DNA of 53,999 nt from a virus (taxonomy: Duplodnaviria > Caudoviricetes): the IMG/VR virus record IMGVR_UViG_3300031519_000026, positions 1 to 53,999 of that record, one strand, 5' to 3'. Shown piece by piece: positions 15,147-42,191 of the stretch. Made by a program: the position numbers and the translations under genes. Below the pieces are notes generated by a model. That model had not been told where the DNA came from, searched no databases, and was given only the letters and a program-made list of their open reading frames with translations. How positions within the stretch are numbered: the stretch's first letter is position 1; each line of letters opens with the position of its first letter.

Positions 15147-15155
15147 AGAAAACGG

Positions 15156-15184: not shown

Positions 15185-15205
15185 AGTCTTATCTACTATA
15201 AAATA

Positions 15206-19641: not shown

Positions 19642-19669
19642 ATAAAAAACTCCCATAATGTAATAACTT

Positions 19670-19913: not shown

Positions 19914-19916
19914 ATA
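19909..19916 (+). promoter_or_regulatory. T4-type late promoter for the + strand radical-SAM operon
   Basis: TATAAATA overlapping the stop of the 56-aa ORF, ~25 nt before the cupin start. Confidence 0.7.
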
Positions 19917-19941
19917 CATTTATATTATGAGGAAGGTGACT

Positions 19942-20406
19942 ATGATTTTTCAAGACTTTGAAAACTTCTTATTAACAGAAGAATGTTTTGATAATCACGA
20001 TGTTTCCGTCATCGACAAAGACGGGCTTCAACACTATCTAAATACAAACAACGAAGACTATATGACTTATCTTGCTGTTATTTCGCTCGAGATTGGCGTC
20101 TGGGCGAAAACAATAAAAGTTGAGCAAATAGAAAAATGGTTTGATTATAACGATAGAACTGCACATGCATTTTATAACCAAGTGAACAGCGGAACTTTTA
20201 GTGTACATACCGACCCTGTTGATGTTATAATAGAATGTTTGGACGGCAGAAAATATATGGAAGTTGAAGGTAAAGAAATAATCTTAGAACCACACGACAC
20301 TCTCCTCATACCAGCAAATACCGAGCACAGAGCGCTCAACAAAGAAAAGGCATTGATGATATCATATGGCATTAACGACACAGAAACATTTAGTCGTATA
20401 CGTTAA
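19942..20406 (+). CDS. Cupin/JmjC-like Fe-dependent oxygenase (minimal)
   Basis: F..HTD..DV......G.K and L.P.D.L.IP....H.A, giving an HxD...H triad; GAGGAAGG RBS (alternative start 19927). Confidence 0.7.
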   Translation: MIFQDFENFLLTEECFDNHDVSVIDKDGLQHYLNTNNEDYMTYLAVISLEIGVWAKTIKVEQIEKWFDYNDRTAHAFYNQVNSGTFSVHTDPVDVIIECLDGRKYMEVEGKEIILEPHDTLLIPANTEHRALNKEKALMISYGINDTETFSRIR

Positions 20407-21394
20407 AACGACTGAAACGTGCAATCTAGATTGTAGTCATTGTTTTACTTCGGGATCAAAAGGACGTAAAATCTATTTTGATGCAAAGAAGACTGCTGAA
20501 TGGTGCAACGAACTTCAGACAGATGATAACCAAATTCATTTTGAATATCATGGTGGTGAGCCTATTCTTGCGCCAATGAAAGACTTAATGGAGTTCTATA
20601 ATATCACAAAAGAAAAATGGGGTGATAGATGTACACACGGTATTACTACTAATCTAGTTTACAAACTTACTGACGAAAGACTCGAATTTCTTAAAATGCT
20701 AGACTCTGGTTCTATTGGAACATCTTGGGATCCGAACATTCGTTTTAGTAATGAGAAGCAACGCAAGCTTTGGGAAGATAATGTTAAACGTTTAGTTGCA
20801 GAAGGCTGTTTTGTAAAGTGCTTTATATCGGTATCTAAAGACGTCGTAAAAATGAATCCTATTGAAATATCTGATTATATGCATTCTCTTGGTATAGAAG
20901 CTATTAACTATGAACGTTTAACCCACGACGGTAATGCTACGATTAACACAGATATATTCCCACATAATTCTGAGCTTGACGCATTTTGGATGAGAGTTCA
21001 TGAAACAACAGCTGATCATCCTGTATACGACAGTTATATGAATACAGTGTATGATAAGTTTAGTAAAGGTCAATTCTTCAATGGTACGTTCTGTCGTGAT
21101 TGCGAGCAGAAAATTCATACAATTAATGCTGATGGTACTGTAGCTGGTTGTCCTAATACTGCTCCTACACAATGGTACGGCGATATTAGTATGCCTGCTA
21201 AAACTGTTAGACAAAGTCCGAAGAGAATGGAAGTTATAGCATGCGAAACTCATGAACGAGATCCAAGATGTTACGACTGTCCTGTTTTTATATATTGCCA
21301 TTCAGATTGTCATCAATTACAATGGATGGGAGATGTATGTCCAGCACCTAAGACTCTAATGCTTAAGCTTGCAAAGGATAAAGGATGGATTTAA
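20366..21394 (+). CDS. Radical SAM/SPASM protein (rSAM-A1)
   Basis: CNLDCSHC, HGGEP, SPASM-type CRDC..DG.V.GCP..CYDC-x5-C-x3-C..C. Confidence 0.92.
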   Translation: MALTTQKHLVVYVKTTETCNLDCSHCFTSGSKGRKIYFDAKKTAEWCNELQTDDNQIHFEYHGGEPILAPMKDLMEFYNITKEKWGDRCTHGITTNLVYKLTDERLEFLKMLDSGSIGTSWDPNIRFSNEKQRKLWEDNVKRLVAEGCFVKCFISVSKDVVKMNPIEISDYMHSLGIEAINYERLTHDGNATINTDIFPHNSELDAFWMRVHETTADHPVYDSYMNTVYDKFSKGQFFNGTFCRDCEQKIHTINADGTVAGCPNTAPTQWYGDISMPAKTVRQSPKRMEVIACETHERDPRCYDCPVFIYCHSDCHQLQWMGDVCPAPKTLMLKLAKDKGWI

Positions 21395-22422
21395 TTATTA
21401 AGCCAACTGAGGCTTGTAACTTTAAATGTACTTTCTGTTCATCAACAGATATAGATCCAAATGAAGTTGGGTTGTTAGATTTAGAATTTATCTTTAGATT
21501 TCTAAAGCGGTATCCTGATACAAATACGATCATTGTTAATGGTGGAGATCCTCTTATGGTCAAGCCTCAGTACTATTGGGATCTGATTAATCACCTCGAT
21601 GAACACGATTATCCGGCATCAATTAGCTTTACTTCTAATCTTTGGCCATTCTTAATGCGACCCGAGAAATGGTTGCCTATCTTTAAAAACGAAAGGTTTG
21701 GTTGTGCTACGTCATTCCAATATGGAGGCGGCAGGTTAAAGGGAGATTACTCAGAGTTTACAGAAGCTGATTTTTGGATGGTTTCAAATGCAATGTTAAA
21801 ACACACTGGTGAACGTCCAGACTTTATAGCTGTAATAACTGATGAGAATGAGCATCTCGCTATAAAAAACGTTGAGCTTGCTAAGGAAATGGGCGTTGAG
21901 TGTAAACTCAATTATGCTATGGCATCTGGTGTTCAAGGTTCCACATATCAGCTAAGCAAAATTTATGAAACATATCTAGAAATATATGACCGTGGATTAG
22001 CAGAATATGAATATAACACCAAACAAATGATAAAAAGATTAGGTGGTTCAGCTACCTCTTGCCCACAAAACAGATTATGCGATACTGGCATTCGTGCCTT
22101 TAACCCAGGCGGCGATTATTATTCTTGCGGTTCTTTTGCTGATGATATGGATTATCCAATTGATTTTGAAGAAGAAATGAATGGTGAAATGCAAACACCG
22201 TTACAAAATGATCCTAATATCCAAACAATGAAAATGGCTTGCTATACTTGCCCTATGTTTGAAATATGCAATGGATGTAAAAAGACAGTACGTGATATGA
22301 AAAGAGAAGGCACTGCAGAAGAGCATTGTCGTAGAATGAAAACACTCGCTCCAAGAATACTTGCTACGAACGGAATGGGTCCAGATATGGTGACGCCTTA
22401 TGTTGATGAATCTATCAATTAA
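21385..22422 (+). CDS. Radical SAM/SPASM protein (rSAM-A2)
   Basis: IIKPTEACNFKCTFC, GGDP, C..C..GDYYSC..CYTC-x5-CNGC..C. Confidence 0.92.
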   Translation: MDLIIKPTEACNFKCTFCSSTDIDPNEVGLLDLEFIFRFLKRYPDTNTIIVNGGDPLMVKPQYYWDLINHLDEHDYPASISFTSNLWPFLMRPEKWLPIFKNERFGCATSFQYGGGRLKGDYSEFTEADFWMVSNAMLKHTGERPDFIAVITDENEHLAIKNVELAKEMGVECKLNYAMASGVQGSTYQLSKIYETYLEIYDRGLAEYEYNTKQMIKRLGGSATSCPQNRLCDTGIRAFNPGGDYYSCGSFADDMDYPIDFEEEMNGEMQTPLQNDPNIQTMKMACYTCPMFEICNGCKKTVRDMKREGTAEEHCRRMKTLAPRILATNGMGPDMVTPYVDESIN

Positions 22423-23314
22423 TCCTACGTATTATTGTAACTTCGCGTGCGATTTCTGTTACCTTACTACTGCACAGTTAAATGATAGACATAAGATAAC
22501 ACCTTTGTGGTTAGAACATAACCTACAACAAATTACTGACGAGATTGGTCATGTTGATTTGTATGGCGGAGAGATTGGATTACTAACACCAGAGTATTAC
22601 TATTCGCTTAAAAAGGTGATTAAAAGATACTATGGTGGTACTATTAATATCAATACTAACTTATCAGCATTTCCAGATTTCTTTAGAGATGACGATGTAA
22701 CGTTATCTGTATCATATGATTTTCACGCAAGGGAAAAAGAACAACATGTTTTAAATAACATGATGAATGCAAACAAAGATTTGTCTGTGCTTATATTGGC
22801 ATCACCAAAGGTTTTAGAGATGGATGTTGAGTTTATGATCTTTACTTTAAACATGGTTTCTAATGTTAAGTCTGTAGAAATTAAACCATATTCTGTTAAT
22901 CAAGCAAATCAACACGAAGTTACGCACAAAGACTTTGAAGATTTTGTCATTAAGTTTGATGAAGCTAAAACAGAAAAGAAATTTAACTTTCAAAATATAG
23001 ATAATATATACGATAGTATAGAAGGAAAGTACGATGCTTTCTCAAACGATCATGTTTATATCACACCAAACGGTAAATACGGCGTGCTTGAATTCGATAA
23101 ATATGATAGAGAATACTTTAAAGAGTATAACACGTATTATGAATATAAGACTTGGGCACGTGAAGAACCCGATAAAAACTTGTCTGATATATGTAAGAAG
23201 TGTAAATATTATGGCAGTTGTTTAACAGAACACTATCGATATGTTAAAGATTTGACTAATAGTTGTAATGGATATAAAGGTTTATTGGAATATTATGAAA
23301 GAATGGAAAGCTAG
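22400..23314 (+). CDS. Radical SAM protein with partial SPASM (rSAM-A3)
   Basis: CNFACDFC, YGGEI, C-terminal CKKC-x5-C..C. Confidence 0.9.
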   Translation: MLMNLSINPTYYCNFACDFCYLTTAQLNDRHKITPLWLEHNLQQITDEIGHVDLYGGEIGLLTPEYYYSLKKVIKRYYGGTININTNLSAFPDFFRDDDVTLSVSYDFHAREKEQHVLNNMMNANKDLSVLILASPKVLEMDVEFMIFTLNMVSNVKSVEIKPYSVNQANQHEVTHKDFEDFVIKFDEAKTEKKFNFQNIDNIYDSIEGKYDAFSNDHVYITPNGKYGVLEFDKYDREYFKEYNTYYEYKTWAREEPDKNLSDICKKCKYYGSCLTEHYRYVKDLTNSCNGYKGLLEYYERMES

Positions 23315-23693
23315 ACAAAGCGCATATCATTTAACAGCATCGTTGTTTAAAGATGATTTAACAGATGTTGATGTTAATTGGCAACCTGATTTAACAGTTG
23401 AATTTGCTTTAACTCATTTCAAAGAATATGTAGATGAATGGATTTATCCTGCAAAGTCATATGTAGTTGCTATATGCTATGCTCATTGGCTGAGCAGAGA
23501 TTTTAAAGAAGACTTTTATGAAGCATTGAATGATCCAGAGTTACTATTCAATAATGATCCGCATTTTATACCTTACTGGCAAGACAAAGAAACTTATGAT
23601 GCCATACTTTCTGAGCTAGACTTTAACGAAAAGCTTGGTATGGTACCTGACATATACGAATACTATAAAGAGGAAATGTTGTTTGGACTTTAG
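23295..23693 (+). CDS. Hypothetical acidic/aromatic protein within the rSAM operon
   Basis: ORF overlaps both flanking rSAM genes; no motif recognised. Confidence 0.65.
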   Translation: MKEWKARQSAYHLTASLFKDDLTDVDVNWQPDLTVEFALTHFKEYVDEWIYPAKSYVVAICYAHWLSRDFKEDFYEALNDPELLFNNDPHFIPYWQDKETYDAILSELDFNEKLGMVPDIYEYYKEEMLFGL

Positions 23694-24759
23694 CTTCACT
23701 AAGCAAATACTAGAGAGTAAGCGACCAGACATCGCTGAGATTGAGATGACGTTGTTTGAAAACTGTCATCTCAACTGTTCGTTTTGTCATCACGATAAGA
23801 AGTCAACTGTTGGTTTATCACGGGAAGCAATATTCTCTAAGATCCCATTAGTTGAAGAACATGTTATTAAAATGAAAGGTCGTGCAGACGTCATTCAAAT
23901 TAATATGCTTGGCGGTGAACTATTCCAAGACAGAATATCAGAATGGGCTTACGATGTTTACTATGATTTTATGGTAGAGATTAAAAAGATCTATGATGAA
24001 CATAAACAAAAGATTAAAGTTGTATGGGTAACATCATTTCAGTTTAGTAAACGAGATAGGGTTCAGAAACTTCTCGACGATTTAAACGCTATTGATATTC
24101 CATCATATATTATTTGTTCATATGATTTTGACGGTAGACCAACAAAGGGTCCATACGCTAAGAACATAGAATATTTCTCAGATTATATTACATCAATTAA
24201 CATGGTTGCTACGACATTAAGCATTAGAAAGTTTATGGCAGATGAGGATGAATACTTCCATTATCTGTACGATAAGTTTGATAACTTTTACTTTGATGAT
24301 TATATTCCTGACCGCGGACATGATCATATGATACCATCAGATAGTGAGTACCTCGAGTTTTTAAAATTCGTATACCATAACTATCCTGACATTAATCCTA
24401 TCAAAGATCTTATATATAATGATAGTAACCACATGCATTGCTTAGCTTTAAATAAGGTTACGATCTTTCCAGATAATTCTACATCTAATTGTAGATGGGA
24501 TAGATATGATCAAAGAGATTTTAATACGAAGTACGAGCCAAAAGATAATGCTGGCATGATGCAGGCATACATGGACGAGAACGGTTGCCTGTCTTGCCAA
24601 TGGTACAACAAGTGTGGATTTAGATGTTACACACAATGGGATTGGAAGAATAGAGAACGTGATTTGCCAGATTGTATTATGAGAATGTGGTTTAATTACA
24701 TGGACAAAACAGGACAAAACAAAATTACAGGATTTGATTATGAAAAAACTAAAAATTAA
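23683..24759 (+). CDS. Radical SAM/SPASM protein (rSAM-A4)
   Basis: CHLNCSFC, LGGEL, C..C..CLSC-x5-C-x3-C..C; probable TTG start after GAGG. Confidence 0.9.
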   Translation: MDFSFTKQILESKRPDIAEIEMTLFENCHLNCSFCHHDKKSTVGLSREAIFSKIPLVEEHVIKMKGRADVIQINMLGGELFQDRISEWAYDVYYDFMVEIKKIYDEHKQKIKVVWVTSFQFSKRDRVQKLLDDLNAIDIPSYIICSYDFDGRPTKGPYAKNIEYFSDYITSINMVATTLSIRKFMADEDEYFHYLYDKFDNFYFDDYIPDRGHDHMIPSDSEYLEFLKFVYHNYPDINPIKDLIYNDSNHMHCLALNKVTIFPDNSTSNCRWDRYDQRDFNTKYEPKDNAGMMQAYMDENGCLSCQWYNKCGFRCYTQWDWKNRERDLPDCIMRMWFNYMDKTGQNKITGFDYEKTKN

Positions 24760-25453
24760 CGCATACACCCACAGTAAACAAGTTTATGAATATCAACCCA
24801 TTGTTACTAAACAATGGAAACCTACTTGGTGGAAAAACTTAACGACTATGTACAAGATATACCATAGCAAATCTGGCGTCATGGTACCAACACCCACAGT
24901 AAAAGCTTGTCCTGGGATTACACAATATATGCAAAAAGCTATTATCATGCGCATGTGGTCTGATGTTATTCTGAAGATTAAACCAGACGGAAAAGTTACG
25001 AGTGTTGCTCCATTACATAATCTCAACGCAGTATCATCTGGTATTCACGAAAAAGCTCAATACGGAGATGGTTTGTATCCAGGATTTACGGTCTGCAAGC
25101 TTGAATCTCCGTGGTACTTCTTAGCATCAGATGATACGAGTTTTATGAACACTGAATATCATTATGATGAATCTTTAAGAAAACATGGAATACAAATAGC
25201 ACCAGGAATTCTTAATTTTAAAGACCAACACGCAACTAATATATTTTTATTGATACCTCTTAAAGACGAAGAGTATGAAATAGAGCTAAAATTCGGTCAA
25301 CCGTTGATGGCGCTTTTCCCCATGACTGATAAGCAAGTTGAAATCAAAAATCATTATGTTAAAGATCCGGTGGAATGGAATGAATTGAACAACATTTTCC
25401 CAAATACGTTCTTAGGTCGCTATTACGCCGGGAAACACGCACGAAACAAGTGA
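24740..25453 (+). CDS. Hypothetical protein (TxKxCPG motif)
   Basis: P.WWK, TVKACPGI, K..SPW, PGI..F, G.PL..L.P pattern; AGGA RBS. Confidence 0.6.
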   Translation: MKKLKINAYTHSKQVYEYQPIVTKQWKPTWWKNLTTMYKIYHSKSGVMVPTPTVKACPGITQYMQKAIIMRMWSDVILKIKPDGKVTSVAPLHNLNAVSSGIHEKAQYGDGLYPGFTVCKLESPWYFLASDDTSFMNTEYHYDESLRKHGIQIAPGILNFKDQHATNIFLLIPLKDEEYEIELKFGQPLMALFPMTDKQVEIKNHYVKDPVEWNELNNIFPNTFLGRYYAGKHARNK

Positions 25454-26431
25454 GTGATGTTCCATATAACTTAGTACACCTTTATCAATACAGGTCATCA
25501 TGTTAGGGCAGGAGCCACAATTAATTGTTTCATTTGAGTACGTTAATTGTTTCATAAAATGGAACGATTTGGCTTCTGTCCACGACTCAATATCATTCTC
25601 ATCTTTAACTTGGAATTCATCAGTACCTATTAAAGCGATGTCATATACGAATGGTGTCCAAAAGAAACGTTCGTTGCAGTAAGTATAGTTTAGTTCTAGC
25701 GAACCGCCTTGTGCTTGGTCAATAAATGTTTTAGGCATAAGATCATCTGAGAAATCATAGCCTTTCCATTTTTCAATTAAATGTTTTTGAACTTTAGATT
25801 TTGGTGCTCTAAAGAACGATGGGTTTAGTGTAAGGATTGAATCAAACCTATCCTCAACAAGTTCAGACATTTCAAGCACTTTAGAATTGTACTCGTCATC
25901 ATTACCCATGTTATAAACCATATAATAATTTAGATCATCTGTAAATCCATTCAGAAGGTCTAATCGCTCTTCTACCCAATCCCAATTTACAGGAGGTTGC
26001 AGCGCAATATTAGCGTCATACATAAATCCATCTATTTTAGGGATGCTGTTAAGTAGTTCAATAACTTCTTGCGAAATGCTTGTTAGGGTTGTTACGAATT
26101 GTATAGTAGAAACCTTGCTTAAACACTCTCGAAATGTTTCGTCTTTTAATAACTCAATAACATTGTTATTACCAAATAAATCAGTAGGACCAATATTAAT
26201 TGTTGATACTCTATAACCATTCTTATTGAATAGATCAATCGCGTTGTTTAGTCTGTCGTATGATCCCATGTTTGAGCCAAGTTTATTAACAAAACAACCT
26301 TTGCATTTAAACTCGCACCCCGATAATACTTCACAATTAAATTGTATCTTGATCTCATGTCCTTCATTAAAAGACAGATCAAAATCCTTGTCAGCTTGTG
26401 CTGCACGTTTATTGTTAGTAACTATTCCCAT
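25412..26431 (-). CDS. Atypical radical SAM protein, GPTD type (rSAM-B5)
   Basis: GCEFKCKGCF, IGPTDLF, C-terminal CGSC-x5-C..C. Confidence 0.8.
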   Translation of the reverse strand: MGIVTNNKRAAQADKDFDLSFNEGHEIKIQFNCEVLSGCEFKCKGCFVNKLGSNMGSYDRLNNAIDLFNKNGYRVSTINIGPTDLFGNNNVIELLKDETFRECLSKVSTIQFVTTLTSISQEVIELLNSIPKIDGFMYDANIALQPPVNWDWVEERLDLLNGFTDDLNYYMVYNMGNDDEYNSKVLEMSELVEDRFDSILTLNPSFFRAPKSKVQKHLIEKWKGYDFSDDLMPKTFIDQAQGGSLELNYTYCNERFFWTPFVYDIALIGTDEFQVKDENDIESWTEAKSFHFMKQLTYSNETINCGSCPNMMTCIDKGVLSYMEHHSLVSCVFPGVIAT

Positions 26432-27554
26432 GATAAACCTCATCATCATATAAACCAATCACATCTTTATTTAAGATGCATTCTTTTCTTCCATCAAACA
26501 CTGTATCCATAATCATCGGAACCATTCTATTCGCACATATGTTTAGATACTTGCAACTACCACATTCTTTATCAGAACTTTGTTCTATTTGATCGTTTAC
26601 AACCTTATTCTTTTTGTTTAGAATAGAATCAACTATATTACCATCAATGTTTACTTTGAAAGCATCGTTGTGTAATTGAGCATTCTCATATATGAATGGC
26701 GACATATACATATTGCCTTGGTGTAAACTCACTACCGAATAGTTAAATGCTTTGTGTGAAACGTCACCTTGTAAAAAATGAAACTTGTTTTTGAAACGAT
26801 GTTGGTCTATTGCTAAGCGTGTTAGCATATCATTCCATTCGAAGAGTTTGTCACCGTGTTTTGCGCTATGGTTAAATGAACGAACTACTGATGGTAATAC
26901 TTCAATTACTGTTTCATATTTTGAACGAACGAAATCTATAGCAGGGTACAATATATCCTCTACACCATGTACGATATTAGTAGCCATACTTATTTCAAAG
27001 TTTAAAGAACTATTCTTAAAAGTTTCAATTCTTTCGTCTAATGCATTTAAGTATTCTTGATCATTCATTAAACGGTTCAAGTCTAGTGCAATCTGCACAT
27101 CCCAAGCCTCAACAACCTTACCTAACGGTGATTCTTCGATAGCTTTAATTTTGCCTTGAATGTCTTTTTCTGATAATGAGCCAAGTATAGAACAGTTATG
27201 TTGGATGTTTCTATTATCTTTTGGCATCATTAGTATGGCATCTGCAAGTCTTGGGTTATTGATAATGTCTATGAGATTTTCTGCACCGTAGAAATCAGTT
27301 GGTCCTATTACAATATCGTCTAATACAACATCTTCTCTGTCTTTTAATTCATATGATAATTCGTGAAATAAGCTGATTGATTTTGGGTTCCAATTACCAC
27401 GGCGTTTAACAAAACAACCTGGACACATATAAGAACAACCTTCAAGAATTTCTAGATTTACTTGAATTTTGTACTGCTTCATACTGTCTACTGAAGTAAA
27501 CTCTTCACCAATACCGCCACCGCTTACGATGTCTTTCCATTCATTATTTAACAT
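26415..27554 (-). CDS. Atypical radical SAM protein, GPTD type (rSAM-B4)
   Basis: GCSYMCPGCF, IGPTDFY, CGSC-x5-C..C. Confidence 0.8.
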   Translation of the reverse strand: MLNNEWKDIVSGGGIGEEFTSVDSMKQYKIQVNLEILEGCSYMCPGCFVKRRGNWNPKSISLFHELSYELKDREDVVLDDIVIGPTDFYGAENLIDIINNPRLADAILMMPKDNRNIQHNCSILGSLSEKDIQGKIKAIEESPLGKVVEAWDVQIALDLNRLMNDQEYLNALDERIETFKNSSLNFEISMATNIVHGVEDILYPAIDFVRSKYETVIEVLPSVVRSFNHSAKHGDKLFEWNDMLTRLAIDQHRFKNKFHFLQGDVSHKAFNYSVVSLHQGNMYMSPFIYENAQLHNDAFKVNIDGNIVDSILNKKNKVVNDQIEQSSDKECGSCKYLNICANRMVPMIMDTVFDGRKECILNKDVIGLYDDEVYHGNSY

Positions 27555-28701
27555 ACGATATGTCCTTAATTCTTTCTAATTCTGGGTCATCATCTTCAGT
27601 AACCAAAAACTTTTTACGATAACCTTGCTTGTCGTTCTCTACTGAATAACCATCCCACTTATACATTGTCTGAGCAGGTCCATTATAATTATGTATGTTA
27701 TTTAGCATATTTTCTTTTGGAGCAATACAACGATCAACTCCAAGGTAATCTCTAAGCATTATGATTTTTCTATTATAACAACTGAAAAACAGAGGACAAT
27801 CTTCGCATTCTGTACCCTTAGCTCTTTGTATTTGTTCTTCAACCATAACATTAACGTCATTAAAGTCATCTACAAGAAACATTGGATCATATATGGCCAT
27901 GTTCTCGTACATGAACGGGCTAAGATACCATTCTCCGCGTTTATAGTTTAGAACTGTGTAATTCATTCCAGCATGAGAATGATCTATCATAATATTATTG
28001 AGTTTTGATTCTCTGTGCCACGTATTAAAATAATCGTTAAATTCATCTAACGTTTTTAAAATTATATTAGCTTTGTGAGAACGAGAGACAGAAGGAATGA
28101 AATCTAAGATTGTATCAAACTTTTCTACAGCGTGTGCATGCAATGCAGTGTAATCTAAACCGTAATCTTTAATGTTTACAACGAATGTATAGGTTACTTC
28201 ATGTTTCAGGTTCTGATCTATATAGTATAGCATATCTGATATGTGTTGTACATAGTCTTCTTTAAAAAACTTATGAGGATTTGTTGCAATACCTATTTCA
28301 ATTTCTGTATTAATATTTACATTATCTGTAATATATTCGCAAAAACCTTCTATGTCTCCATCGATAAGAGTTGACACGAACGCAAGAATGGGATTGTTCT
28401 CATTAATAATATCTAATAATTCTGGCATCACTTCATAGAAGTTTTCAGATGCAAGAAAGTCTGTAGGTCCTATTAAAATCTCATCAACCAATATACCTTG
28501 GTCAGTAATGCTGCGAATAAATTCTTTAGCTTTGTTTAACTGGTGCTTGTCACTACTGTTTCCACGTCTATGCACGAAGCATCCTGGGCACTTGTGATGG
28601 CATCCGTCTAAAACGTCTAGCTGTATCTTAACCGCTGATACAGGCTTTGTCTGAGTCTCTGTGGTCATCTCATAGTATAGGTTATTCTTAATTAGAGGCA
28701 T
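27544..28701 (-). CDS. Atypical radical SAM protein, GPTD type (rSAM-B3)
   Basis: GCHHKCPGCF, IGPTDFL, CEDC-x5-C..C. Confidence 0.8.
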   Translation of the reverse strand: MPLIKNNLYYEMTTETQTKPVSAVKIQLDVLDGCHHKCPGCFVHRRGNSSDKHQLNKAKEFIRSITDQGILVDEILIGPTDFLASENFYEVMPELLDIINENNPILAFVSTLIDGDIEGFCEYITDNVNINTEIEIGIATNPHKFFKEDYVQHISDMLYYIDQNLKHEVTYTFVVNIKDYGLDYTALHAHAVEKFDTILDFIPSVSRSHKANIILKTLDEFNDYFNTWHRESKLNNIMIDHSHAGMNYTVLNYKRGEWYLSPFMYENMAIYDPMFLVDDFNDVNVMVEEQIQRAKGTECEDCPLFFSCYNRKIIMLRDYLGVDRCIAPKENMLNNIHNYNGPAQTMYKWDGYSVENDKQGYRKKFLVTEDDDPELERIKDISYVK

Positions 28702-29710
28702 ACATGTATTCCTTCAATGCAACACACGTGTCTAATCCTCTCGACTCCATATACAAATGAACGTTACGTTCTGCACAACTCATCATATATTCACAACCAT
28801 TGCAGTCGTCGACTTGCTGCGCATACTCTATATTATCGTACAAAGTGTTAGCATCCATATCTGTTTCGAATTGAGGTGTGCGTTGGATAATCACATCATA
28901 TAAGAACGGATTAATATAAAGTTTGTTATTATAAAAACTGTAGTTCTGACATCCGTAACCATTAAACTTTGCGTCAAAGAACGTATATAGGTTTAACCAT
29001 CGTTTATCTATCTTTTGCTCAACCATTTCACGTCTAAAGTTTTCAAGATGTTGGCTTACCTTTCCTCTTACGTTTCTATCTGTGAGAAACGAAGGTGTAA
29101 TAACAACAGGAGCATTAAAGTCATCAAATACTCTTTGTGCTAATTCGTTATACGAAATTCTTTTAAATATATCTTTATGATAATTGACTCGGAACTGTAC
29201 TGATCCAAGTTTAAATAACTCAAGATTCTTGTAGAAGTCATCGAGATCACCGTCTAAATATTTGTTAATATCTAAAACAATTTTAAAGTCAATGTCTGGC
29301 ACTCTGTGGATATTTCTATATAAACTCCAAATAACAGCCAATTTTTCTTTGATTAGCATATAAGGTTGTGTCAAAGCAGATGAAAATCCTATAGCTGATA
29401 TGCCGTACAATTTTTCCATATAAGGGTGATACATTATATCGTTAAAGTTCTCTGCGTCAAATATGTCTGTAGGTCCGACAGTGATTTCGTCAGGATGATA
29501 CTGCCCCTTTATAAGCAAGTTATAAAGAGTTTCTAAATTATCTGCTTTTGTTAAATTCTTTCGTGGTATGAAACAACCTGGACACATCTGGCTACAACCA
29601 TGTAAAATATCTAGATTAATTTCTGTCCTCAAAAAATCTGTGTTTATAGGACTTTTGTCTTCGTCGTAAGAATAATAACCAGCATAGGTGCTATTCAGGT
29701 GGACTATCAT
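28688..29710 (-). CDS. Atypical radical SAM protein, GPTD type (rSAM-B2)
   Basis: GCSQMCPGCF, VGPTDIF, CNGC-x5-C..C. Confidence 0.8.
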   Translation of the reverse strand: MIVHLNSTYAGYYSYDEDKSPINTDFLRTEINLDILHGCSQMCPGCFIPRKNLTKADNLETLYNLLIKGQYHPDEITVGPTDIFDAENFNDIMYHPYMEKLYGISAIGFSSALTQPYMLIKEKLAVIWSLYRNIHRVPDIDFKIVLDINKYLDGDLDDFYKNLELFKLGSVQFRVNYHKDIFKRISYNELAQRVFDDFNAPVVITPSFLTDRNVRGKVSQHLENFRREMVEQKIDKRWLNLYTFFDAKFNGYGCQNYSFYNNKLYINPFLYDVIIQRTPQFETDMDANTLYDNIEYAQQVDDCNGCEYMMSCAERNVHLYMESRGLDTCVALKEYMYASN

Positions 29711-30524
29711 CTAATTCTAATTCTGATAATTCTGGTGTTTCGAAATTAATAAAGAACGAACTTGGGAAAAACGCCATTATTTGACCCATAACTTTTGTAT
29801 GGTTTAACACATAATATAAATCTTTGCCGAAATATTTAGGTGAATCGTTAAACACAGATTTATTGTACGTTTGGCTTAATCCCCTCATGTGTGTAATTGC
29901 TAAAAATCCATCTAGACCTTCAGTAACAAATCTTGCAATGTTAGGACCACACTTTGCTGGCTTGTCTACGATAGTAATCTCATCGACAAAATTCTTGAGT
30001 TCTACCTCTTTAATTCTGTTTTCTTCTGGCATTGTTTCATATAACTTGTGCAAAGAAAATGGTATTACATCTCTGATTGTTTCGATAAGCTCGTCAACAA
30101 GATCAAAGTTACCCTCTATAAACTTATGTATTTCATCTTCTGGCCATATTTTATAAAACATTTTATCTGCGTCATTAAGTTCGTAGTGCAATCTGTGTCT
30201 AATAAGCATAGATACAAACCTTACAAGAATCGGAGAGTCCACCATAAAATCAGAAGTAATATATTCTTTAATAAGATCTTCGTCAACGGCGCTGAAGCCG
30301 GTTTTAAAATTGGTGTTAGCAAGATATATCATAATATGCTTAGCAGAAAGTTTTTCTTTTGACGCAAGATAATCAACGTAAAGAATATAATCTTTCTTTT
30401 CTTCTTTTTCTTTATAAATCGCAACTAGGTCCTGAGGAGCCAGAGGTAATTTATAGCAAGTAATTGACTTAGCACGTTCATCTAGTTCTTTTTCACTTAT
30501 TAGTTCTTCACTTTTATCAATCAT
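29691..30524 (-). CDS. Hypothetical protein in the rSAM operon
   Basis: 277-aa ORF overlapping the downstream rSAM gene; no motif recognised. Confidence 0.65.
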   Translation of the reverse strand: MIDKSEELISEKELDERAKSITCYKLPLAPQDLVAIYKEKEEKKDYILYVDYLASKEKLSAKHIMIYLANTNFKTGFSAVDEDLIKEYITSDFMVDSPILVRFVSMLIRHRLHYELNDADKMFYKIWPEDEIHKFIEGNFDLVDELIETIRDVIPFSLHKLYETMPEENRIKEVELKNFVDEITIVDKPAKCGPNIARFVTEGLDGFLAITHMRGLSQTYNKSVFNDSPKYFGKDLYYVLNHTKVMGQIMAFFPSSFFINFETPELSELELDDSPPE

Positions 30525-30534
30525 AATTTATATC

Positions 30535-31620
30535 CTAATCAGTTAATGTATATTTGTGGATCAAGTAAGGAATTCTATTCTGCCTTTTGGAAAAGAACTG
30601 AACATCAGTATTAATCAATCTTAAATCTTCTGTTAAGTTATCCATGTCAAATGTTCTTTCTAGAACTTTCTTTACGATTGGAAAAACGTTATTAATTTCT
30701 GTGTACAAATCCCAGAATTCCCAACCATCAGGGCTAGCATCTCTTTTATCGGAGTGTACCTGAATAAATGCAGCGTTGTCTTTTACTCTGTTCCACAATT
30801 CCTCAAGCTTATAAAACGCAACTTGATAATTACCGTTGTTAGCAGCTTTTAAATAAGTCTCGTTGATGAATTCTTGTTTGTCTACCGGTAATTCATTAGC
30901 ATTCATCCAATCAATTACAGAAAGAATATAAGCCAAGTAGTGGCGACGAGATGTAAAGTGTTCCATAACATCTTGAGCCATATCTGCGCTGTGAATAGTA
31001 AATTTCTCAATTAAAAGAGATTGAACTTCTGGACACGGGTAATAATCATTTAAGTAAAACAACAGATCATAGCTAAAGTTTTTACCATTTTGATAAACCA
31101 CAGTGAATGGCGGCGTGTCTTCGTGTCCAAGAATACCGTTGGCATATGCTGAAATATCTGCTACTACCGAAGATCCAGCCATATATGTGAACATACTATC
31201 GCAAGAAATTACTTTTTCTAAGAATTGTGCTGCAATATCGTTTACATTATAATCTGTGTCTGAATAAAATCCGGCAGCAGTTAATAGACCAGAAACATAT
31301 CTTGCGTGCATTGCAATTTGATCATCTTCTTCCCAAAATACTAATATGCATTTTTCGCTGTTTTGAATATAATCTTCTGTGATTTCTTCCCACTGCTTAA
31401 ATACAATTTCCGCGCCAATTCCATCGCGAAGTGCGTCTGCTCTTACCTGGATATCACCCGGTATAAGCTGATTATCTACTCTTGAAGGATGCACACAAAC
31501 AATAGTTCTGTGTCGTTTTGTATGGTAAAAGCTGTTTATTTCAGATATGACAGTTTCTAAATTAGTAATATTGGTAATGTATTTTTTGTTGTTTAAAAAA
31601 TAAAGATGTTGGCCAATCAT
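30535..31620 (-). CDS. Hypothetical protein in the rSAM operon
   Basis: 361-aa ORF, ATGA-coupled to the upstream rSAM gene; no motif recognised. Confidence 0.65.
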   Translation of the reverse strand: MIGQHLYFLNNKKYITNITNLETVISEINSFYHTKRHRTIVCVHPSRVDNQLIPGDIQVRADALRDGIGAEIVFKQWEEITEDYIQNSEKCILVFWEEDDQIAMHARYVSGLLTAAGFYSDTDYNVNDIAAQFLEKVISCDSMFTYMAGSSVVADISAYANGILGHEDTPPFTVVYQNGKNFSYDLLFYLNDYYPCPEVQSLLIEKFTIHSADMAQDVMEHFTSRRHYLAYILSVIDWMNANELPVDKQEFINETYLKAANNGNYQVAFYKLEELWNRVKDNAAFIQVHSDKRDASPDGWEFWDLYTEINNVFPIVKKVLERTFDMDNLTEDLRLINTDVQFFSKRQNRIPYLIHKYTLTD

Positions 31621-32792
31621 GATATTGCTCCTAGTTTTTCCATTGCATCATCGTTCCACGTCCAATCAGTTGGATTATATTGATCCAATACATCCTTATT
31701 CAGGACACAGCCGTTAACGTTTAATGATTCTTGCGCTTCGAATATTAATCTGCTAGCACATGCTACTGCAAATTTGCAATCAGCACAGTCACTAACCTTG
31801 CTTGACTTATTTATACCTTTAGTAACAAGTTCGTTTTTACGATCTAATATTTCTTCGAATGATAAACCAGTAACATCTAAATTCTTATTATTTAAGAAAA
31901 ACGCTTGTTCGTGAAGCATTACATTTAAGTGTGTTGTTGGACCATCAGCACCAGGTACAATTGTAAGACCAACAAAGTTTATTGAATTACAATACAGATT
32001 AGCCATCGACATAACTGTTTCTTGCGCGTTATCTTCATCAATAACTTTACCAAGAAATTCGTTCCAGCCGAATAGATTTCTGCGTTGAATTAATTCTGAT
32101 CTAGCTCTTGAAAAGGCAGGGTTCATTTCAACAATTGTTTCATATTCGTTAACTGATTTTTGGATAATTCTGTTATATGTTTCCTTATCAATTTTCTTAC
32201 CCACAACATTAGAAGCCTGGAGTGTCCAAGACCAATCCATTTGTTTAGGTGTACTATCTTTAAAGAACTTGACTTTCTGCATGACTGAATTAAAGTAATC
32301 TTCATCATCCAACATTTGTGATACTTTACCTATTGGCATGATAAATTCTATAATCATTTCTCTACGAAATTTGTCTTCGTCATCTAAGATGGCAAATATT
32401 TCTTCTACCTTTTCCATAGTTGCGATATCAAATTTAGCAGGCGCTGCAATTCTGGCACCAGTATGTTCTCTCATAATTTCTTGCACAACCGAGTTATTTA
32501 ATACAGATTCTGTATTTGTCGCCGAAAAGAAATCAGTCGGTCCAATAACAAATTCTCTTAAATTAAGACCAGTTCTTTTGATACCATCAGTAAGTTCTTT
32601 TGCTCTGTCTATAATCATTTGATTCATTTCTGGATCAATATTTTTATCAACAAAACACCCTAAACAACCATGATCGCAACCAGCTAAAACTTCCATTTGA
32701 ATAAGAACATCAAATTTATTTGTATCAGATGGTGCAAGACTTTCTGGACCAGAATATCTCATTTGTTTGCAGTATGATTTTTGCATAGACAT
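31617..32792 (-). CDS. Atypical radical SAM protein, GPTD type (rSAM-B1)
   Basis: GCDHGCLGCF, IGPTDFF, CADC-x5-C..C; ATG overlaps the stop of the upstream CHxS-repeat gene (TAATG). Confidence 0.8.
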   Translation of the reverse strand: MSMQKSYCKQMRYSGPESLAPSDTNKFDVLIQMEVLAGCDHGCLGCFVDKNIDPEMNQMIIDRAKELTDGIKRTGLNLREFVIGPTDFFSATNTESVLNNSVVQEIMREHTGARIAAPAKFDIATMEKVEEIFAILDDEDKFRREMIIEFIMPIGKVSQMLDDEDYFNSVMQKVKFFKDSTPKQMDWSWTLQASNVVGKKIDKETYNRIIQKSVNEYETIVEMNPAFSRARSELIQRRNLFGWNEFLGKVIDEDNAQETVMSMANLYCNSINFVGLTIVPGADGPTTHLNVMLHEQAFFLNNKNLDVTGLSFEEILDRKNELVTKGINKSSKVSDCADCKFAVACASRLIFEAQESLNVNGCVLNKDVLDQYNPTDWTWNDDAMEKLGAIS

Positions 32793-33208
32793 TAGCGTCT
32801 TCCTCTCGATGTGTGACAACTACTATGGCAACTAGCGTGACATACGTTAATTGTAAACGACACATTATTAATTCGACCCTCTATCAGATCTACTGTTCTT
32901 CTTACGCCGTCTTCAATAGTATCAACGATATCTTGCGCGTACATTAGCCCTCCTGCTACTACACCAGCATCGTAATAACCGTCGTATAAACTATCAGCAG
33001 CGTTTACGTATTCCATTCTATGTCCCTGGTTCCAGAGCGTTGTATATTGTTTACCGTCTAGGCGCATCGCTCCGCCGTATGTGCTATCAAACCCGTAAGT
33101 TCTAACATAGGCTGTTACACCATAAGTTACAGTCTTGTCAAATGTTCGTAATGCCGCGCCAGAATATGTTTGCACGTAAGAGTTTAGATCAGCAACTGTA
33201 GCAACCAT
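32792..33208 (-). CDS. CHxS-repeat protein 2, candidate radical-SAM substrate
   Basis: 138 aa ending CHASCHSSCHTSRGRR; all its Cys lie in this tail; paralog of the adjacent gene. Confidence 0.75.
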   Translation of the reverse strand: MVATVADLNSYVQTYSGAALRTFDKTVTYGVTAYVRTYGFDSTYGGAMRLDGKQYTTLWNQGHRMEYVNAADSLYDGYYDAGVVAGGLMYAQDIVDTIEDGVRRTVDLIEGRINNVSFTINVCHASCHSSCHTSRGRR

Positions 33209-33621
33209 TATCTTCTACCTCTAGATGTATGACAACTGCTGTGGCAGCTTTGGTGGCAGGGAGAAATACTAAACGTTCTATTGCCCAGTCTACCTTCAAT
33301 CAAATCAACAGTTCTTCTAATCACGCTTGTAATAGAATCAATAACATCTTGAGAACTGATGATGTTACCTGTGTAAATACCGCTATCTAAATAGTTGTTA
33401 TACACTGAGTCACCTGCGTTTACGTATTCGTAACGTTGGCTGTTATATACCAATCCGTAGGATGAATAACCGTTAACGAGCATCCAACTGCCGTATGCGC
33501 TATCAAAGCCCCAAACCCGCACCCATCCAGTTACATTAAGTTGAATCGTTTTATCAAACGTTCTCAGCTGGCTGCCTGCTTTTGACTGCATGCTCGTGTT
33601 TAAATCTGCATATGATGGCAT
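33208..33621 (-). CDS. CHxS-repeat protein 1, candidate radical-SAM substrate
   Basis: 137 aa ending CHQSCHSSCHTSRGRR; starts 1 nt after the giant fibre stop. Confidence 0.75.
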   Translation of the reverse strand: MPSYADLNTSMQSKAGSQLRTFDKTIQLNVTGWVRVWGFDSAYGSWMLVNGYSSYGLVYNSQRYEYVNAGDSVYNNYLDSGIYTGNIISSQDVIDSITSVIRRTVDLIEGRLGNRTFSISPCHQSCHSSCHTSRGRR

Positions 33622-33622: not shown

Positions 33623-36600
33623 TTATACTTTCACCTCTACTTCACCTTCTCCATCGCAATCACCTATAGCGATGCCTATGATCTCATGACTATTTATACC
33701 ACTTGTACCATAGTCTACAGCGCGGCCTTTTCCATCTACATCAGCAATAACCCATTGACCCTTTTTAGCAGAACCGTGGATTAACACAGGAATACGTCCT
33801 TTAAGAGCTATAAATGGAGCCATCATAGCATCTATTGATTTGTCATCAGGATCGTAACCCATATCATTCATCATAACAGCAGGTAATGTCGAAACACAAC
33901 CAGCTAAAGGCATACCGGGTTGGTAAAGAGTAACTTCTTTATCTCCATTGATATCAATAGCTAAAACTGTGCCTGCTGGATATATATCATCTGCAGTATA
34001 TCTTTCCGCCAAATCCGCCCATCTTGCTGACGTAGCTGTACCGACATAAAGACCGTCATTATTAACATAAGCTTTATCAGTACCATCTCTACGGAATTGA
34101 CAAATTCTATTTGAGTTACCACCAGCAGCGATATAAAATCTATCTGAGTGATATTCAATTTTACCTTTATCATTTCCAGGGTTACCGGTCCAAGTTGTGT
34201 TCGCATCTTCGTAGTACCAATGGTTTGGTGAATAGCCATCTGCCATTCTTGTACGAATTTGCCATTGTCCACCAGTGTTTAGATAACCACACCAGTTGCT
34301 AGTGTCTCCGTGTAGCCACATTCTAATGCTACTATTATATGAAGACCTTAACTGCAAACTTATTGAAGAGTTGCTGTTACCAGAGATAGCATAGTATGCA
34401 CTTTGGTATGAGTAAGCGTGAACACCAGTATTTTGGTTATACACACCTTCGCCAGAATCGTCATTACGGAACCAGTTACGAGCATAAACCTCGTTGGCAC
34501 GAACACTCGTGTTAAAGACAGAAGCACCTGCAGGGTTGGAATAATAGGTAGTGTTGTCAGAATCATAGAAGATAGGCGCTCTGAAACTGTATGCTGAGTA
34601 AGCATAATTTGAATCGCCGTAAACTCTAAATAAGGCAGTTGTGACCATGGCGCCAGATGCTGAACCGTGACGCCCAACATAGAAGTCAGCTCCAGATGTG
34701 TTGTTGTTATTTGAGTCTAAGTTAAAGAAAATACTTCCGTATGAGTTGATACGAATATCGTCAGATACATCACCTGCAGTGTTTCTTGAAGTGATTGAGT
34801 GGTTTTGACTATTATCACCATAAAAGGTAATAAAGTCACCACGATCTCTTGCGTTTAACTGATCCCATTCAATTGTACCCATTTGAGATGTAGAAGCTGG
34901 ATTTGTATAACGATTTGTATCGTTTGAGTCATAGAAGATTGGAGCTCTTAATGAACTGCCAGCTTGTAACGAGTTATTTACATGAACATCGTTTTGACCT
35001 AAAGGATCAGAACCGTTATTGATTGACATGACCTGAGTTGCCATATTATAATCGTTATAGAAGCGAATACCGTTATAAGTGTGATAAGCGCCCATCTTAA
35101 TACCAGTATGGAAAGCAATTCTTAGATCAGGGTATGGGGTAGACCAACCACCACTTTCACGATAAATGGCGTAAGCAGCAGATTCATTAGTGTTAAAATA
35201 CATACCGAAAGTATTATCATCACTTACTGCACGTCTATGAACAAATCTGTTTGCTCTAATATCCTCAGCAAATAGCGAGTCTCCAGCCGGGTTGGAATAA
35301 TAAGAACTGTTATTACGGTCATAGAAAGTATTAGCATATAAACTGCCGTAAATTTCAGTCGTAGAACTATTAGTTCTTAATGCCCAGCTTGCATCTTGGT
35401 TAAGAAAACCGATGTTATTGGTGTTATTGGCATATACGTAACCACGAATAGTACCACCGCTCTCGTCTCTAAAGCGTATAGCATTTGCTCCAGTTCCACC
35501 AGCGACGTTCCAATAATCATCGTCATCTGAATAGAAGTGTTGACCCGTTGCAGTGTTATATAGACCTTTACCGCTTGTATCATTACGGAACCAACCATCG
35601 TTGTAGATTTCGCCACGAATATCGAGTGTGTTCATTACTGATGTACCAGCAAAGTTACCGTAATAACCAGTACTATCTTTATCATAAAATGTACCAGCAT
35701 AAGCACCACCTGTAACCATTAAGTTACCGTCACCTCTAATAATGAGGTTTGTAGTACCACCTAATCCACCATCTTTAAACGCTATATCTTCTCCGCCAGA
35801 AGTAGCAATAATTAAGTGCGCATCATTTGTTTCTGTTGCTTGAATATAGCCACGAACATTGCCAGATGCTGATTGGAAGTTTGCAGAACCACCAGAAGTA
35901 AATTGTACTGTATTCATTATAGATGTAGAAGCAAAGTCACCGTAGTAAGAAGAGTCATTTGCGTCATAATATCTTGATGCGTAAAAAGGTGTATCTCCTG
36001 GGTTTGAGTTGTAGATAGCAATATCAGAATATGCTGAGTACGCAGTACCTGAGTTCCAAGTTTGTTGCCATAAACGCATACCACGACCAGTTTTCTTAAA
36101 CATAAGAAGGTTATCTGATCCGCCGGAAGCATCTGTGTATGATCTTAAGTGGAGGTAATCTGCATAAGGTGCAGTGTTATTATTATTCCAAGATGTGAAA
36201 CCGAACCTTAGTTGTCCAGCCGTATCTTCATTTGGCTCAATAATTCTGTTATCTCTTCTTACGAGAGAACTAGCATAACCTGTAACACCTGGTGTTGTGA
36301 TTGCTTGATCAACAGTTAATCCTAAGAACCTTGATGTACTAGCAAAGTTGCCGTTATACGTTGTATTGTCGCTATCATAAAAGATAGGTGAACGAACTTG
36401 GTTAGTACCTAAGAAGAAACCATCTTTAGTAGAGGCTTGTTCTGTGCCATCCCAATAAAGTTCGACATCGCCATTCTGACGATAAATCGTAGCCCATTCG
36501 TTGTTAGTATCATTATAGATACCAGCAACGCCAGCTCCACTTGACATGAATACCCAGTCATCGTTAATAGCATAACCTGCATAACCACCTTTATTACCAG

Positions 36601-42154: not shown

Positions 42155-42191
42155 TCGGTTCACTCTCCCCAGTTAGGCTTCTATTTTCTTT

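Follow-up and report, generated by a model that had tools for sequence, protein, structure and literature searches.

Atypical radical-SAM enzymes as a copy-number-variable part of a conserved phage cassette beside tail-fibre genes

The stretch of DNA analysed here at its full length (the window) is the 54-kb IMG/VR virus record IMGVR_UViG_3300031519_000026 (53,999 nucleotides (nt), about 24% complete), whose minus strand encodes five paralogs of an atypical radical S-adenosylmethionine (radical-SAM) family. Judging from their conserved motifs and a predicted structure, the five are probably genuine, catalytically competent radical-SAM enzymes, and they most likely serve as accessory tailoring maturases, for which a substrate and a chemistry are proposed here. 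They belong to a conserved cassette as its accessory part, which varies from 0 to 5 copies, and the constant core of this cassette comprises a cupin, four canonical radical-SAM enzymes, proteins of 277 and 141 amino acids (aa), and one or two small proteins that end in three Cys-His-any-Ser repeats followed by Arg-Gly-Arg-Arg, here (CHxS)3RGRR. The gene set likely modifies chemically this small protein, which is encoded beside the tail fibre. Taken as a whole, the reading of the five as competent phage enzymes that belong to the accessory part of the cassette and modify the CHxS tail or its RGRR end is the one towards which we lean, with some reserve.

Motifs, family limits and fold of the atypical enzymes

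Seven open reading frames (ORFs) occupy the minus strand at 25412-32819, and five of them are paralogs: paralog 1 (348 aa, 25412..26458; the TTG start is uncertain and an internal Met is possible), paralog 2 (379 aa, 26415..27554), paralog 3 (385 aa, 27544..28701), paralog 4 (340 aa, 28688..29710) and paralog 5 (400 aa, 31617..32819), which adjoins the genes of the CHxS proteins. The initial annotation, which described 25412..32792 as a block of five paralogs, was thus right about the paralogs, and two unrelated ORFs have to be added between paralogs 4 and 5. All five match phrog_31457, a family of unknown function (E 4e-7, 7e-10, 4e-10, 1e-5 and 1e-4 for paralogs 1 to 5, respectively). Paralogs 2-5 are 19-28% identical to paralog 1 in the alignment of the five, and one paralog used as a query recovers the other four at E 1e-33 to 6e-15. 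Three elements are invariant among them: L-x-G-C-x3-C-x-G-C-F in the cluster loop (EVLSGCEFKCKGCF, EILEGCSYMCPGCF, DVLDGCHHKCPGCF, DILHGCSQMCPGCF and EVLAGCDHGCLGCF), G-P-T-D with an N six residues on (in the strings IGPTDL/F and VGPTDI), and C-x2-C-x5-C followed by a distal C. The GCxxxCxGCF, (I/V)GPTD and four-Cys tail motifs that had been reported for all five are therefore exact by alignment, save that the last Cys spacer measures 16 residues in four of the paralogs and 18 in one, not about 20. Equally, the four plus-strand enzymes have the canonical loops ascribed to them (CNLDCSHC/GGE, CNFKCTFC/GGD, CNFACDFC/GGE and CHLNCSFC/GGE).

A profile of the five window paralogs, scored against 1.84 billion cluster representatives, matched 215 at E<=1e-3 and 181 at E<=1e-10, which marks the family as small and its limits as sharp. 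Among the best 150 of the 215 representatives, 136 carry the CxxxCxxC loop, and of these loop-bearing members 129 have Gly before the third Cys, 93 the exact GPTD, 117 G-x-x-D and 130 the CxxCx5C...C tail; on these counts the motifs are not chance features but recur across the family. A word-indexed search returned 288 proteins, of which the 120 listed are unnamed or 'hypothetical', carry no precomputed Pfam domain and come from metagenome collections (ENA, JGI, Logan, Tara, MGnify) on contigs of up to 217 kb. The family appears to be phage-borne, judging by the IMG/VR loci, phage records and contig sizes.

In Pfam, no model scores any of the five above its cut-off; for Radical_SAM (PF04055, gathering cut-off 29.5 bits) the best is paralog 3 at 23.6 bits, and three of the five have either Fer4_12 below its cut-off or no Pfam match. 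Likewise, no paralog reaches any NCBIfam cut-off: the SPASM model TIGR04085 gives 19.7 bits, in paralog 2 only, against a cut-off of 27, and the HxsB and HxsC models (TIGR03978 and TIGR03977, cut-offs 370 and 268 bits) match none of the five at E<=0.1. Against the Protein Data Bank (PDB), the five-sequence profile found no sequence relative at E<=1, and a 124-sequence profile found only the cluster loop of GDGT-MAS (7tol, E 0.007). These results bear out the proposal of a distinct subfamily, which on sequence grounds is best classed as a new variant, at the level of a family, among the radical-SAM maturases. Literature searches, with subscription journals and supplements outside their coverage, found no description of the family, the tail motif or the cassette.

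Paralog 2 (26415-27554) was modelled with AlphaFold2 from the 124-sequence alignment, with a predicted local distance difference test score (pLDDT) of 93.1 and a predicted template modelling score (pTM) of 0.91. The model shows six beta-alpha units, then a beta-hairpin (residues 272-284) and then a helical domain bearing four Cys. The CX3CX2C loop, invariant in the five and in the 124 aligned members, lies between beta1 (residues 28-35) and helix 1, and GPTD (residues 84-87) lies at the end of beta2 (strand 76-84), the place usually held by GGE. The best solved match is anSMEcpe (Z 16.0, 309 residues aligned, root-mean-square deviation 4.5), aligned nearly end to end (model residues 28-378 against chain residues 2-369), followed by ChlB (15.3), TigE (13.9), CteB (13.7), SuiB (12.9) and SkfB (12.1), and at lower scores by MoaA (11.9), EpeE (11.2) and PqqE (11.1). 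Solved radical-SAM matches range from Z 16 to 10, Foldseek places the model at E 1e-5 to radical-SAM structures, and the best-matching solved structures are all radical-SAM protein or peptide maturases of the SPASM/Twitch type. According to the model, then, a partial (beta/alpha)6 TIM-barrel radical-SAM fold is present, the fold on which the initial annotation had made its assignment depend.

In the radical-SAM superfamily, the GGE-type motif at the end of beta2 contacts the SAM amino group. In E. coli NrdG, VSGCVHECPGCY is followed about 40 residues on by SGGDPLHPQN; the former aligns with LDGCHHKCPGCF and the latter with IGPTDFLASEN (MAFFT, BLASTP), so that Gly, the three Cys, Asp and Asn fall in shared columns. 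BLASTP of paralog 3 against the NrdG loop gave E 1e-5, and the NrdG models are the best NCBIfam matches to the N-terminal part of three of the five, where TIGR02491 scores 22.1, 17.3 and 13.6 bits against a cut-off of 126 (E 1e-4 for paralog 3). GDGT-MAS (7tol) also has a non-aromatic residue, Ile, before the third Cys. By this alignment the GGE-type acid is kept in the phage family as the Asp of GPTD, which may contact SAM; reductive cleavage of SAM to the 5'-deoxyadenosyl radical is predicted for the family. The suggestion that the motifs imply altered SAM binding or chemistry finds no support in this comparison; the motifs define the family, but altered chemistry is not arguable from them alone, because NrdG, a working activase, carries the GCxxxCPGC(Y) loop together with the aligned acid.

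Only seven Cys are conserved in the 124 family sequences, and in alignments the family CxxCx5C falls on the CX2CX5C of the window's SPASM paralogs. In anSMEcpe the ligands of the second auxiliary cluster (Aux II) are Cys317, 320, 326 and 348 and those of the first (Aux I) Cys255, 261, 276 and 330 (PMC5715301). Of the full SPASM motif (CX9-15GX4C, gap, CX2CX5CX3C, gap, C) the family has CX2CX5C and one distal Cys, and lacks the X3C and the upstream Cys pair, which sets it apart from seven-Cys SPASM proteins. Nor is it of the Twitch kind, which the same source defines by the absence of CX2CX5CX3C (PMC5715301): with CX2CX5C retained and the Aux I Cys missing, the family is the opposite case. The C-terminal beta-hairpin and helical Cys domain of the model do place it in the structural SPASM/Twitch class. 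The family thus appears to keep the Aux II ligand set without that of Aux I, and two [4Fe-4S] clusters per enzyme are predicted, since this set is kept beside the cluster loop. Its C-terminal domain seems to be SPASM-derived with the distal cluster site only.

One canonical-loop enzyme on the plus strand, enzyme C (304 aa, 22400..23314), has a four-Cys C-terminal domain like that of the atypical family. It combines a CNFxCDFC loop with GGE and occurs as a single copy in every cassette; its orthologues have 7-10 Cys, of which the family-like seven are invariant across a 13-sequence alignment. The window's enzyme C contains no Cys beyond seven, while the SPASM Cys sets of the remaining three on the plus strand are fuller. 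Its C-terminal domain matches the family profile by hhalign over 85 columns (probability 82%, E 1e-5), whereas the match of the family to the four canonical enzymes pooled is weak (probability 8%) and becomes clear only against enzyme C alone. The four-Cys tail is therefore a feature of the five, as initially noted, but is not peculiar to them, the same seven-Cys layout being found in enzyme C, which was probably the source of the atypical family's C-terminal domain.

Copy number, synteny and descent of the cassette

Sixty IMG/VR loci with relatives were compared, with ORFs assigned by best phmmer match. The recurring order is fibre, CHxS protein or proteins, atypical radical-SAM enzyme or enzymes with the 361-aa and 277-aa proteins, four canonical radical-SAM enzymes, the 141-aa protein, cupin and 2-oxoglutarate (2OG) oxygenase. 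Thirty-four loci span the cassette (33 complete viral-contig loci and that of the Ralstonia phage RSF1), many of them closely related and some from the same contig, and hence not independent. Counted as atypical, CHxS and canonical genes, 23 loci have the composition 5/2/4, four have 2/2/4 and two have 3/1/4, with single loci at 5/2/3, 6/2/4, 5/1/4, 4/1/4 and 1/1/4, the last being RSF1. The apparent six-copy locus probably reflects a split gene, since type 1 is there divided into two adjacent ORFs. Type 1 is found as two adjacent ORFs in viral contigs L025, L027 and L040, probably through a frameshift or an assembly break. The 361-aa protein occurs once in each of the 33 complete viral-contig loci and is missing from the RSF1 row.

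The cassette core is also found in the cultured jumbo phages RSF1, pPa_SNUABM_DT01 (DT01), Atu_ph07 and Phosso. Ralstonia RSF1 has one atypical copy and Pseudomonas pPa_SNUABM_DT01 two; the family is absent from the whole genomes of Agrobacterium Atu_ph07 and Sinorhizobium Phosso, searched with a model that does match RSF1 and DT01. Besides marine T4-like phages, soil jumbo phages of Ralstonia, Burkholderia, Pseudomonas, Agrobacterium and Sinorhizobium carry the cassette. Published accounts of the jumbo phages, as far as they treat these genes, merely list them as radical SAM, Fe-S oxidoreductase or cupin (PMC8066314, PMC5468394), and the phage records hold no functional annotation past the labels 'radical SAM' and 'Fe-S oxidoreductase'. 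Position-specific roles on a repeat core, which the initial annotation had offered as one explanation for the paralogs, fit poorly with these compositions: the CHxS repeats always number three, and the atypical enzymes 0, 1, 2, 3, 4 or 5. A simple rule tying the count of atypical copies to that of the CHxS genes or of the repeats was weighed but dropped, as the locus compositions do not fit it.

A maximum-likelihood tree (LG+G4, quick search, long branches flagged) of 64 family members from 17 loci and the window resolved five clades, each with 100% support in the Shimodaira-Hasegawa-like approximate likelihood-ratio test (SH-aLRT), with stems of 0.8-1.6 and one window paralog per clade. Paralogs 1 and 4 thus each have a clade of their own, paralog 3 represents a type retained in two-copy cassettes, and paralog 5, on the longest stem (1.62), a type retained in two-, three- and four-copy cassettes. 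Orthologues of each of the five types occur in many phages. Two-copy cassettes always hold types 3 and 5, three-copy cassettes types 3, 4 and 5, and the four-copy cassette types 1, 3, 4 and 5; the single copy of RSF1 is a long unresolved branch. The proposed expansion by tandem duplication accordingly holds as duplication within the cluster, but a recent burst is contradicted by the five old clades.

Compared with orthologues in loci L010 and L014, the five paralogs show nonsynonymous divergence (dN) of 0.03-0.12 with synonymous divergence (dS) above 1, and compared with those in L020 dN of 0.14-0.26, in all cases like the four canonical enzymes; dS is saturated, so that dN/dS is read here qualitatively only. 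Each of the five is an old orthologue group, conserved separately and subject to purifying selection: the five separate clades and the low dN, like that of the canonical enzymes, indicate that the duplications are old and that each copy has been maintained. Old, maintained copies fit non-redundant roles and speak against decayed or merely structural ones.

These data bear on the possibility, raised in part by the initial annotation, that several of the five, or the whole set, lack catalytic activity and serve as Fe-S or scaffold subunits of hetero-oligomers, formed mutually or with the canonical enzymes, which present the substrate or relay electrons. Such a role would suit the retention of only the distal, Aux II-type site, for which an electron route to the protein surface has been proposed in anSME (PMC5715301), and also the presence of several paralogs per cassette and the constant pairing of types 3 and 5 in two-copy cassettes. 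However, the CX3CX2C loop is complete in all five, which also retain the acid of GPTD, the other near-invariant residues and the seven Cys, under the same constraint as the canonical enzymes; furthermore, RSF1 manages with one copy and Atu_ph07 and Phosso with none. We found no support for partly non-catalytic members and regard this explanation as highly unlikely.

The CHxS proteins and the proposed role of the atypical enzymes

The candidate substrates are two proteins encoded on the minus strand, one of 138 aa (32792..33208; phrog_35144) that ends CHASCHSSCHTSRGRR and one of 137 aa (33208..33621) that ends CHQSCHSSCHTSRGRR; both close with CH(A/Q)SCHSSCHTSRGRR. Of 141 homologues, every one of the 120 listed carries the tail (118 with (CHxS)3RGRR and two with A for the middle S), and the C, H, S, R, G, R and R columns are invariant in 122 aligned sequences. 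All 95 of the CHxS ORFs in the loci end SRGRR, ORF071 of RSF1 ends CHSSCHSSCHGSRGRR and the DT01 protein ends CHTSCHTSCHSARGRR; those of Atu_ph07 and Phosso end SRSRR. The body of the protein is 55-67% identical between phages whose radical-SAM enzymes are 84-94% identical, and a fast-evolving body with an invariant tail is as expected of a carrier plus core. CHxS proteins span 125-306 aa, with further examples at L001:9175-9735, L070:16056-16946, L071:8071-8607 and L072:13056-13976. A C-terminal X-Gly-Arg-Arg resembles the eukaryotic amidation signal.

The CHxS protein model has a pLDDT of 82.8. Foldseek found nothing similar to it in the PDB at E<=0.001, the best score in a wide structural search was Z 5.5, and against BFVD only the protein's own Atu_ph07 homologue was matched (E 0.016). 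A complex prediction for paralog 5 with two 4Fe-4S clusters, SAM and the CHxS protein scored 0.03 against a mark of 0.32 in a run without controls, and is read neither for nor against the pairing. The tail might be merely a metal-binding trimer motif that stays unmodified, but this would leave the strictly linked radical-SAM cassette unexplained.

A possible partner in handling the substrate is the 277-aa protein (29691..30524, minus strand), a core member of the cassette that has no match in Pfam, NCBIfam or PHROG. A hidden Markov model built from 40 marine homologues matches the jumbo phages Atu_ph07, RSF1 and pPa_SNUABM_DT01 (E 3e-12 to 8e-10), where the homologue adjoins the CHxS gene in Atu_ph07 and pPa_SNUABM_DT01 and lies one gene after it in RSF1. 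Its evolution is as fast as that of the CHxS body, which is why it may act as a substrate-handling partner.

The end of the CHxS tail also gives rise to a different view of the five, as NrdG-type activases that abstract the C-alpha hydrogen of the RGRR Gly to form a glycyl radical, leading to a cross-link or backbone cleavage. The NrdG-like cluster loop and the N-terminal NrdG matches described above would agree with this, as would the finding of RGRR in every examined phage with at least one atypical enzyme (95/95 locus ORFs, RSF1 and DT01), the sole two phages lacking the family having RSRR. These two phages are related, however, and amount to effectively one evolutionary observation. Moreover, the fold is of the SPASM type and not the small NrdG fold, the NrdG scores stay at or below 22 bits against a cut-off of 126, and the CHxS tail lacks the context of a glycyl-radical enzyme. 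We consider activase function very improbable. The terminal Gly region is nevertheless a possible target of the family under the reading we favour, because the family is absent from the sole lineage with RSRR instead of RGRR, which is one evolutionary observation.

The arrangement of the genes is compatible with joint expression late in infection. Minus-strand genes overlap by 44, 11, 14, 20, 4, 28 and 1 nt and are separated by gaps of 10 and 1 nt. The motif TATAAATA, which we take as the consensus of T4 late promoters, has 13 matches in the window where 7.0 are expected, a count reached in 3 of 100 shuffles, and 12 of the 13 sites are on the strand of nearby genes. Late-promoter-like sites lie at 19909..19916 on the plus strand, 11 nt before the cupin start, and at 33691..33698 on the minus strand, 70 nt upstream of the first CHxS gene; another lies 29 nt before the fibre start.

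The favoured reading may be set out as follows. The cassette and the fibre genes would be expressed together late in infection. Of the canonical enzymes, A, B and D have a full SPASM domain and C has one auxiliary site; all four would install constant core radical modifications on the (CHxS)3 tail. Each atypical paralog would then add a distinct, non-redundant radical modification, such as a cross-link or an epimerisation, to the tail or to RGRR, and these additions would be lineage-specific.

Several points weigh against this proposal. The link between the atypical enzymes and the CHxS tail is indirect. Since the tail and all four canonical enzymes occur in Atu_ph07 and Phosso without it, the family is not needed for the core process and might act on another substrate, and the number of atypical copies (0-5) tracks neither the CHxS genes (1-2) nor the repeats (always 3). 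No leader-binding (RRE) domain can be recognised in the enzymes, which start about 30 residues before the cluster loop. Only 83 of the 136 loop-bearing members among the best 150 of the 215 representatives have F, Y or H directly after the third Cys, which bears on how the SAM adenine is packed. In anSME, about 27 Angstrom separate Aux II from the radical-SAM cluster (PMC5715301), and a domain with only the Aux II site would have no obvious electron path. Saturation of dS, finally, limits what the selection analysis contributes.

On some of these grounds the five might instead be active radical-SAM enzymes that act on a target other than CHxS, such as the adjacent giant fibre, another virion protein or a small molecule. 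Besides the absence of the family from Atu_ph07 and Phosso and the lack of any relation of copy number to repeats or CHxS genes, this view gains from the constant position of the cassette next to very large fibre or structural genes and from the closest fold, that of anSME, which modifies a folded protein and not a small peptide. Set against it, in 26 of 26 complete viral-contig loci with two CHxS genes these are directly followed by type 5, or by the 361/277-aa pair and then type 5, and no alternative target in the form of another short, invariant motif came to light, the fibre not having been searched for one. A target other than the CHxS protein therefore seems rather unlikely to us, and modification of the CHxS tail remains the preferred reading.

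Nine radical-SAM genes at one phage locus, near tail-fibre genes and late-promoter-like motifs, are far above what phage annotation usually holds. If (CHxS)3RGRR is indeed matured by them, extensive radical chemistry is carried out on a phage-made, probably virion-associated protein, and five unstudied enzymes gain a well-defined substrate. The series of 0, 1, 2, 3, 4 and 5 copies is a natural one for dissecting the contribution of each paralog, and a SPASM-derived domain seemingly with the distal cluster site only bears on the function of auxiliary clusters. The cassette and the role of the family within it stand out more than altered chemistry argued from motifs, a case weakened by the precedent of NrdG.

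Genomic setting and comparison with known systems

The left third of the window (G+C 34-40%) is a T4-type structural module (scaffold, prohead protease, portal, tube, sheath, terminase and neck), with a portal 54% identical to those of the Sinorhizobium T4-like phages phiM12, phiM7 and phiN3. Megablast of the region under study and tblastn of the CHxS protein found no match in the phage collection, from which close relatives of the window may be missing. The cassette sits between this module and three very large fibre-like genes (2846, 785 and 1284 aa). The first of these (33623..42163, minus strand) lies directly upstream of the CHxS genes in the same direction of transcription, and a homologue flanks the cassette in 33 of 33 complete viral-contig loci, its presence being part of the definition of 'complete'. 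Four very large fibre or structural genes are in fact consecutive on the minus strand, at 33623-42163 (2846 aa), 42206-44563 (785 aa), 44624-48478 (1284 aa) and 48902-53596 (1564 aa), the last with collagen-like and tail-fibre PHROG repeats. Within the structural module, 15206-15985 (minus strand) matches phrog_7878, annotated as heptose 7-phosphate kinase / heptose 1-phosphate adenylyltransferase, and just outside the cassette two adjacent paralogous small genes lie on the minus strand at 18268-18603 and 18618-19004 (phrog_7802, function not annotated).

The cassette is flanked by a 2OG-Fe(II) oxygenase gene of conserved position (19081..19656, minus strand; phrog_81, E 5e-26). Its divergent plus-strand half begins with the cupin (19927..20406; Pfam Cupin_2 at 31.4 bits, above cut-off), conserved in RSF1, Atu_ph07 and DT01. 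There follow canonical radical-SAM/SPASM enzyme A (342 aa, 20366..21394; phrog_1802, E 5e-57), which is 43-45% identical to jumbo-phage proteins and weakly matches DarE, HxsB and cyclophane-maturase models far below cut-off, and enzyme B (345 aa, 21385..22422), which reaches 33.9 bits for Pfam Radical_SAM, above cut-off, and has orthologues in RSF1, Atu_ph07 and DT01. Beyond enzyme C lie the 141-aa core protein (23268..23693; phrog_20737), radical-SAM/SPASM enzyme D (374 aa, 23635..24759), assigned through Pfam, NCBIfam and PHROG searches and the jumbo-phage comparison, and a 239-aa protein (24734..25453; phrog_7084) that occurs in part of the cassettes. On the minus strand, the 361-aa protein (30535..31620), of unknown family, is a cassette member in marine phages and was not detected in the three jumbo phages searched (RSF1, Atu_ph07 and pPa_SNUABM_DT01); ESM Atlas searches with the 361-aa and 277-aa proteins returned only unnamed phage clusters or scores in the chance range. 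Enzyme types that depend on oxygen (the 2OG-Fe(II) oxygenase and the cupin) are thus fixed neighbours of nine oxygen-sensitive radical-SAM genes in phages from marine water. In RSF1 (L001), two dihydrofolate-reductase genes are inserted mid-cassette, at 14776-15892.

Among known enzymes, anSMEcpe, ChlB, TigE, CteB and SuiB share with the phage family the (beta/alpha)6 core, the beta-hairpin and the Cys-rich helical C-terminal domain (Z 16.0 to 12.9). The CX2CX5C and distal Cys correspond to the Aux II ligand pattern of anSME (PMC5715301), and anSME and the other radical-SAM/SPASM maturases all modify proteins or peptides. The phage family differs from them in having no detectable sequence relation, no Aux I ligands (upstream Cys pair, X3C), Gly and not an aromatic residue before the third Cys, GPTD for GGE and no RRE domain. 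NrdG resembles the family in its G-C-x3-C-x-G-C-aromatic loop and in the aligned acid about 40 residues on (GGD against GPTD); unlike the phage proteins of 340-400 aa, it is a single domain of 154 aa without a C-terminal Cys domain, and its substrate is a glycyl-radical enzyme. Enzyme C and its orthologues (RSF1, Atu_ph07, DT01) have the seven-Cys layout and a homologous C-terminal domain, but differ in their canonical loop and GGE and in being single-copy.

For the chemistry, the His three-residue cyclophane synthases HtkB and HaaB offer one model: they are radical-SAM/SPASM enzymes described as cross-linking His to the residue two positions on (PMC11499958). Such chemistry is plausible for H-x-S and the canonical enzymes, which weakly match cyclophane-maturase models without reaching a cut-off; it has no tie to the atypical five.

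A parallel to the cassette is the bacterial HXS antiphage system, in which HxsA, with His-Xaa-Ser repeats as its hallmark, is matured by the radical-SAM enzymes HxsB and HxsC with HxsD, and a +8 Da change maps to an SHRSS motif (PMC13128918). Both systems encode a His-x-Ser-repeat protein with several radical-SAM enzymes and a small partner. The canonical enzymes A, B and C match the HxsB/HxsC models weakly (34 against 370 bits, 22 against 268, and also 12), far below cut-off. The phage repeat differs in being C-H-x-S, three times over, at the extreme C-terminus and followed by RGRR; the N-terminus of the CHxS protein has no hydrophobic stretch by reading alone, no signal-peptide predictor having been run, and no Pfam match, peptidoglycan-binding domains included. 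In addition, the phage cassette stands beside fibre genes, whereas HXS is a bacterial defence. A bolder extension of the parallel, which we rate as distinctly unlikely, would make the atypical enzymes a phage-specific radical-SAM lineage, with an NrdG-like loop and the distal cluster only, that targets the RGRR Gly or its neighbours, each paralog making a different cross-link or cleavage. The heavily cross-linked Cys/His module, carried on a protein made together with the tail fibres, would then be the phage counterpart of the radical-SAM-matured HxS effector that bacteria direct against phage DNA entry.

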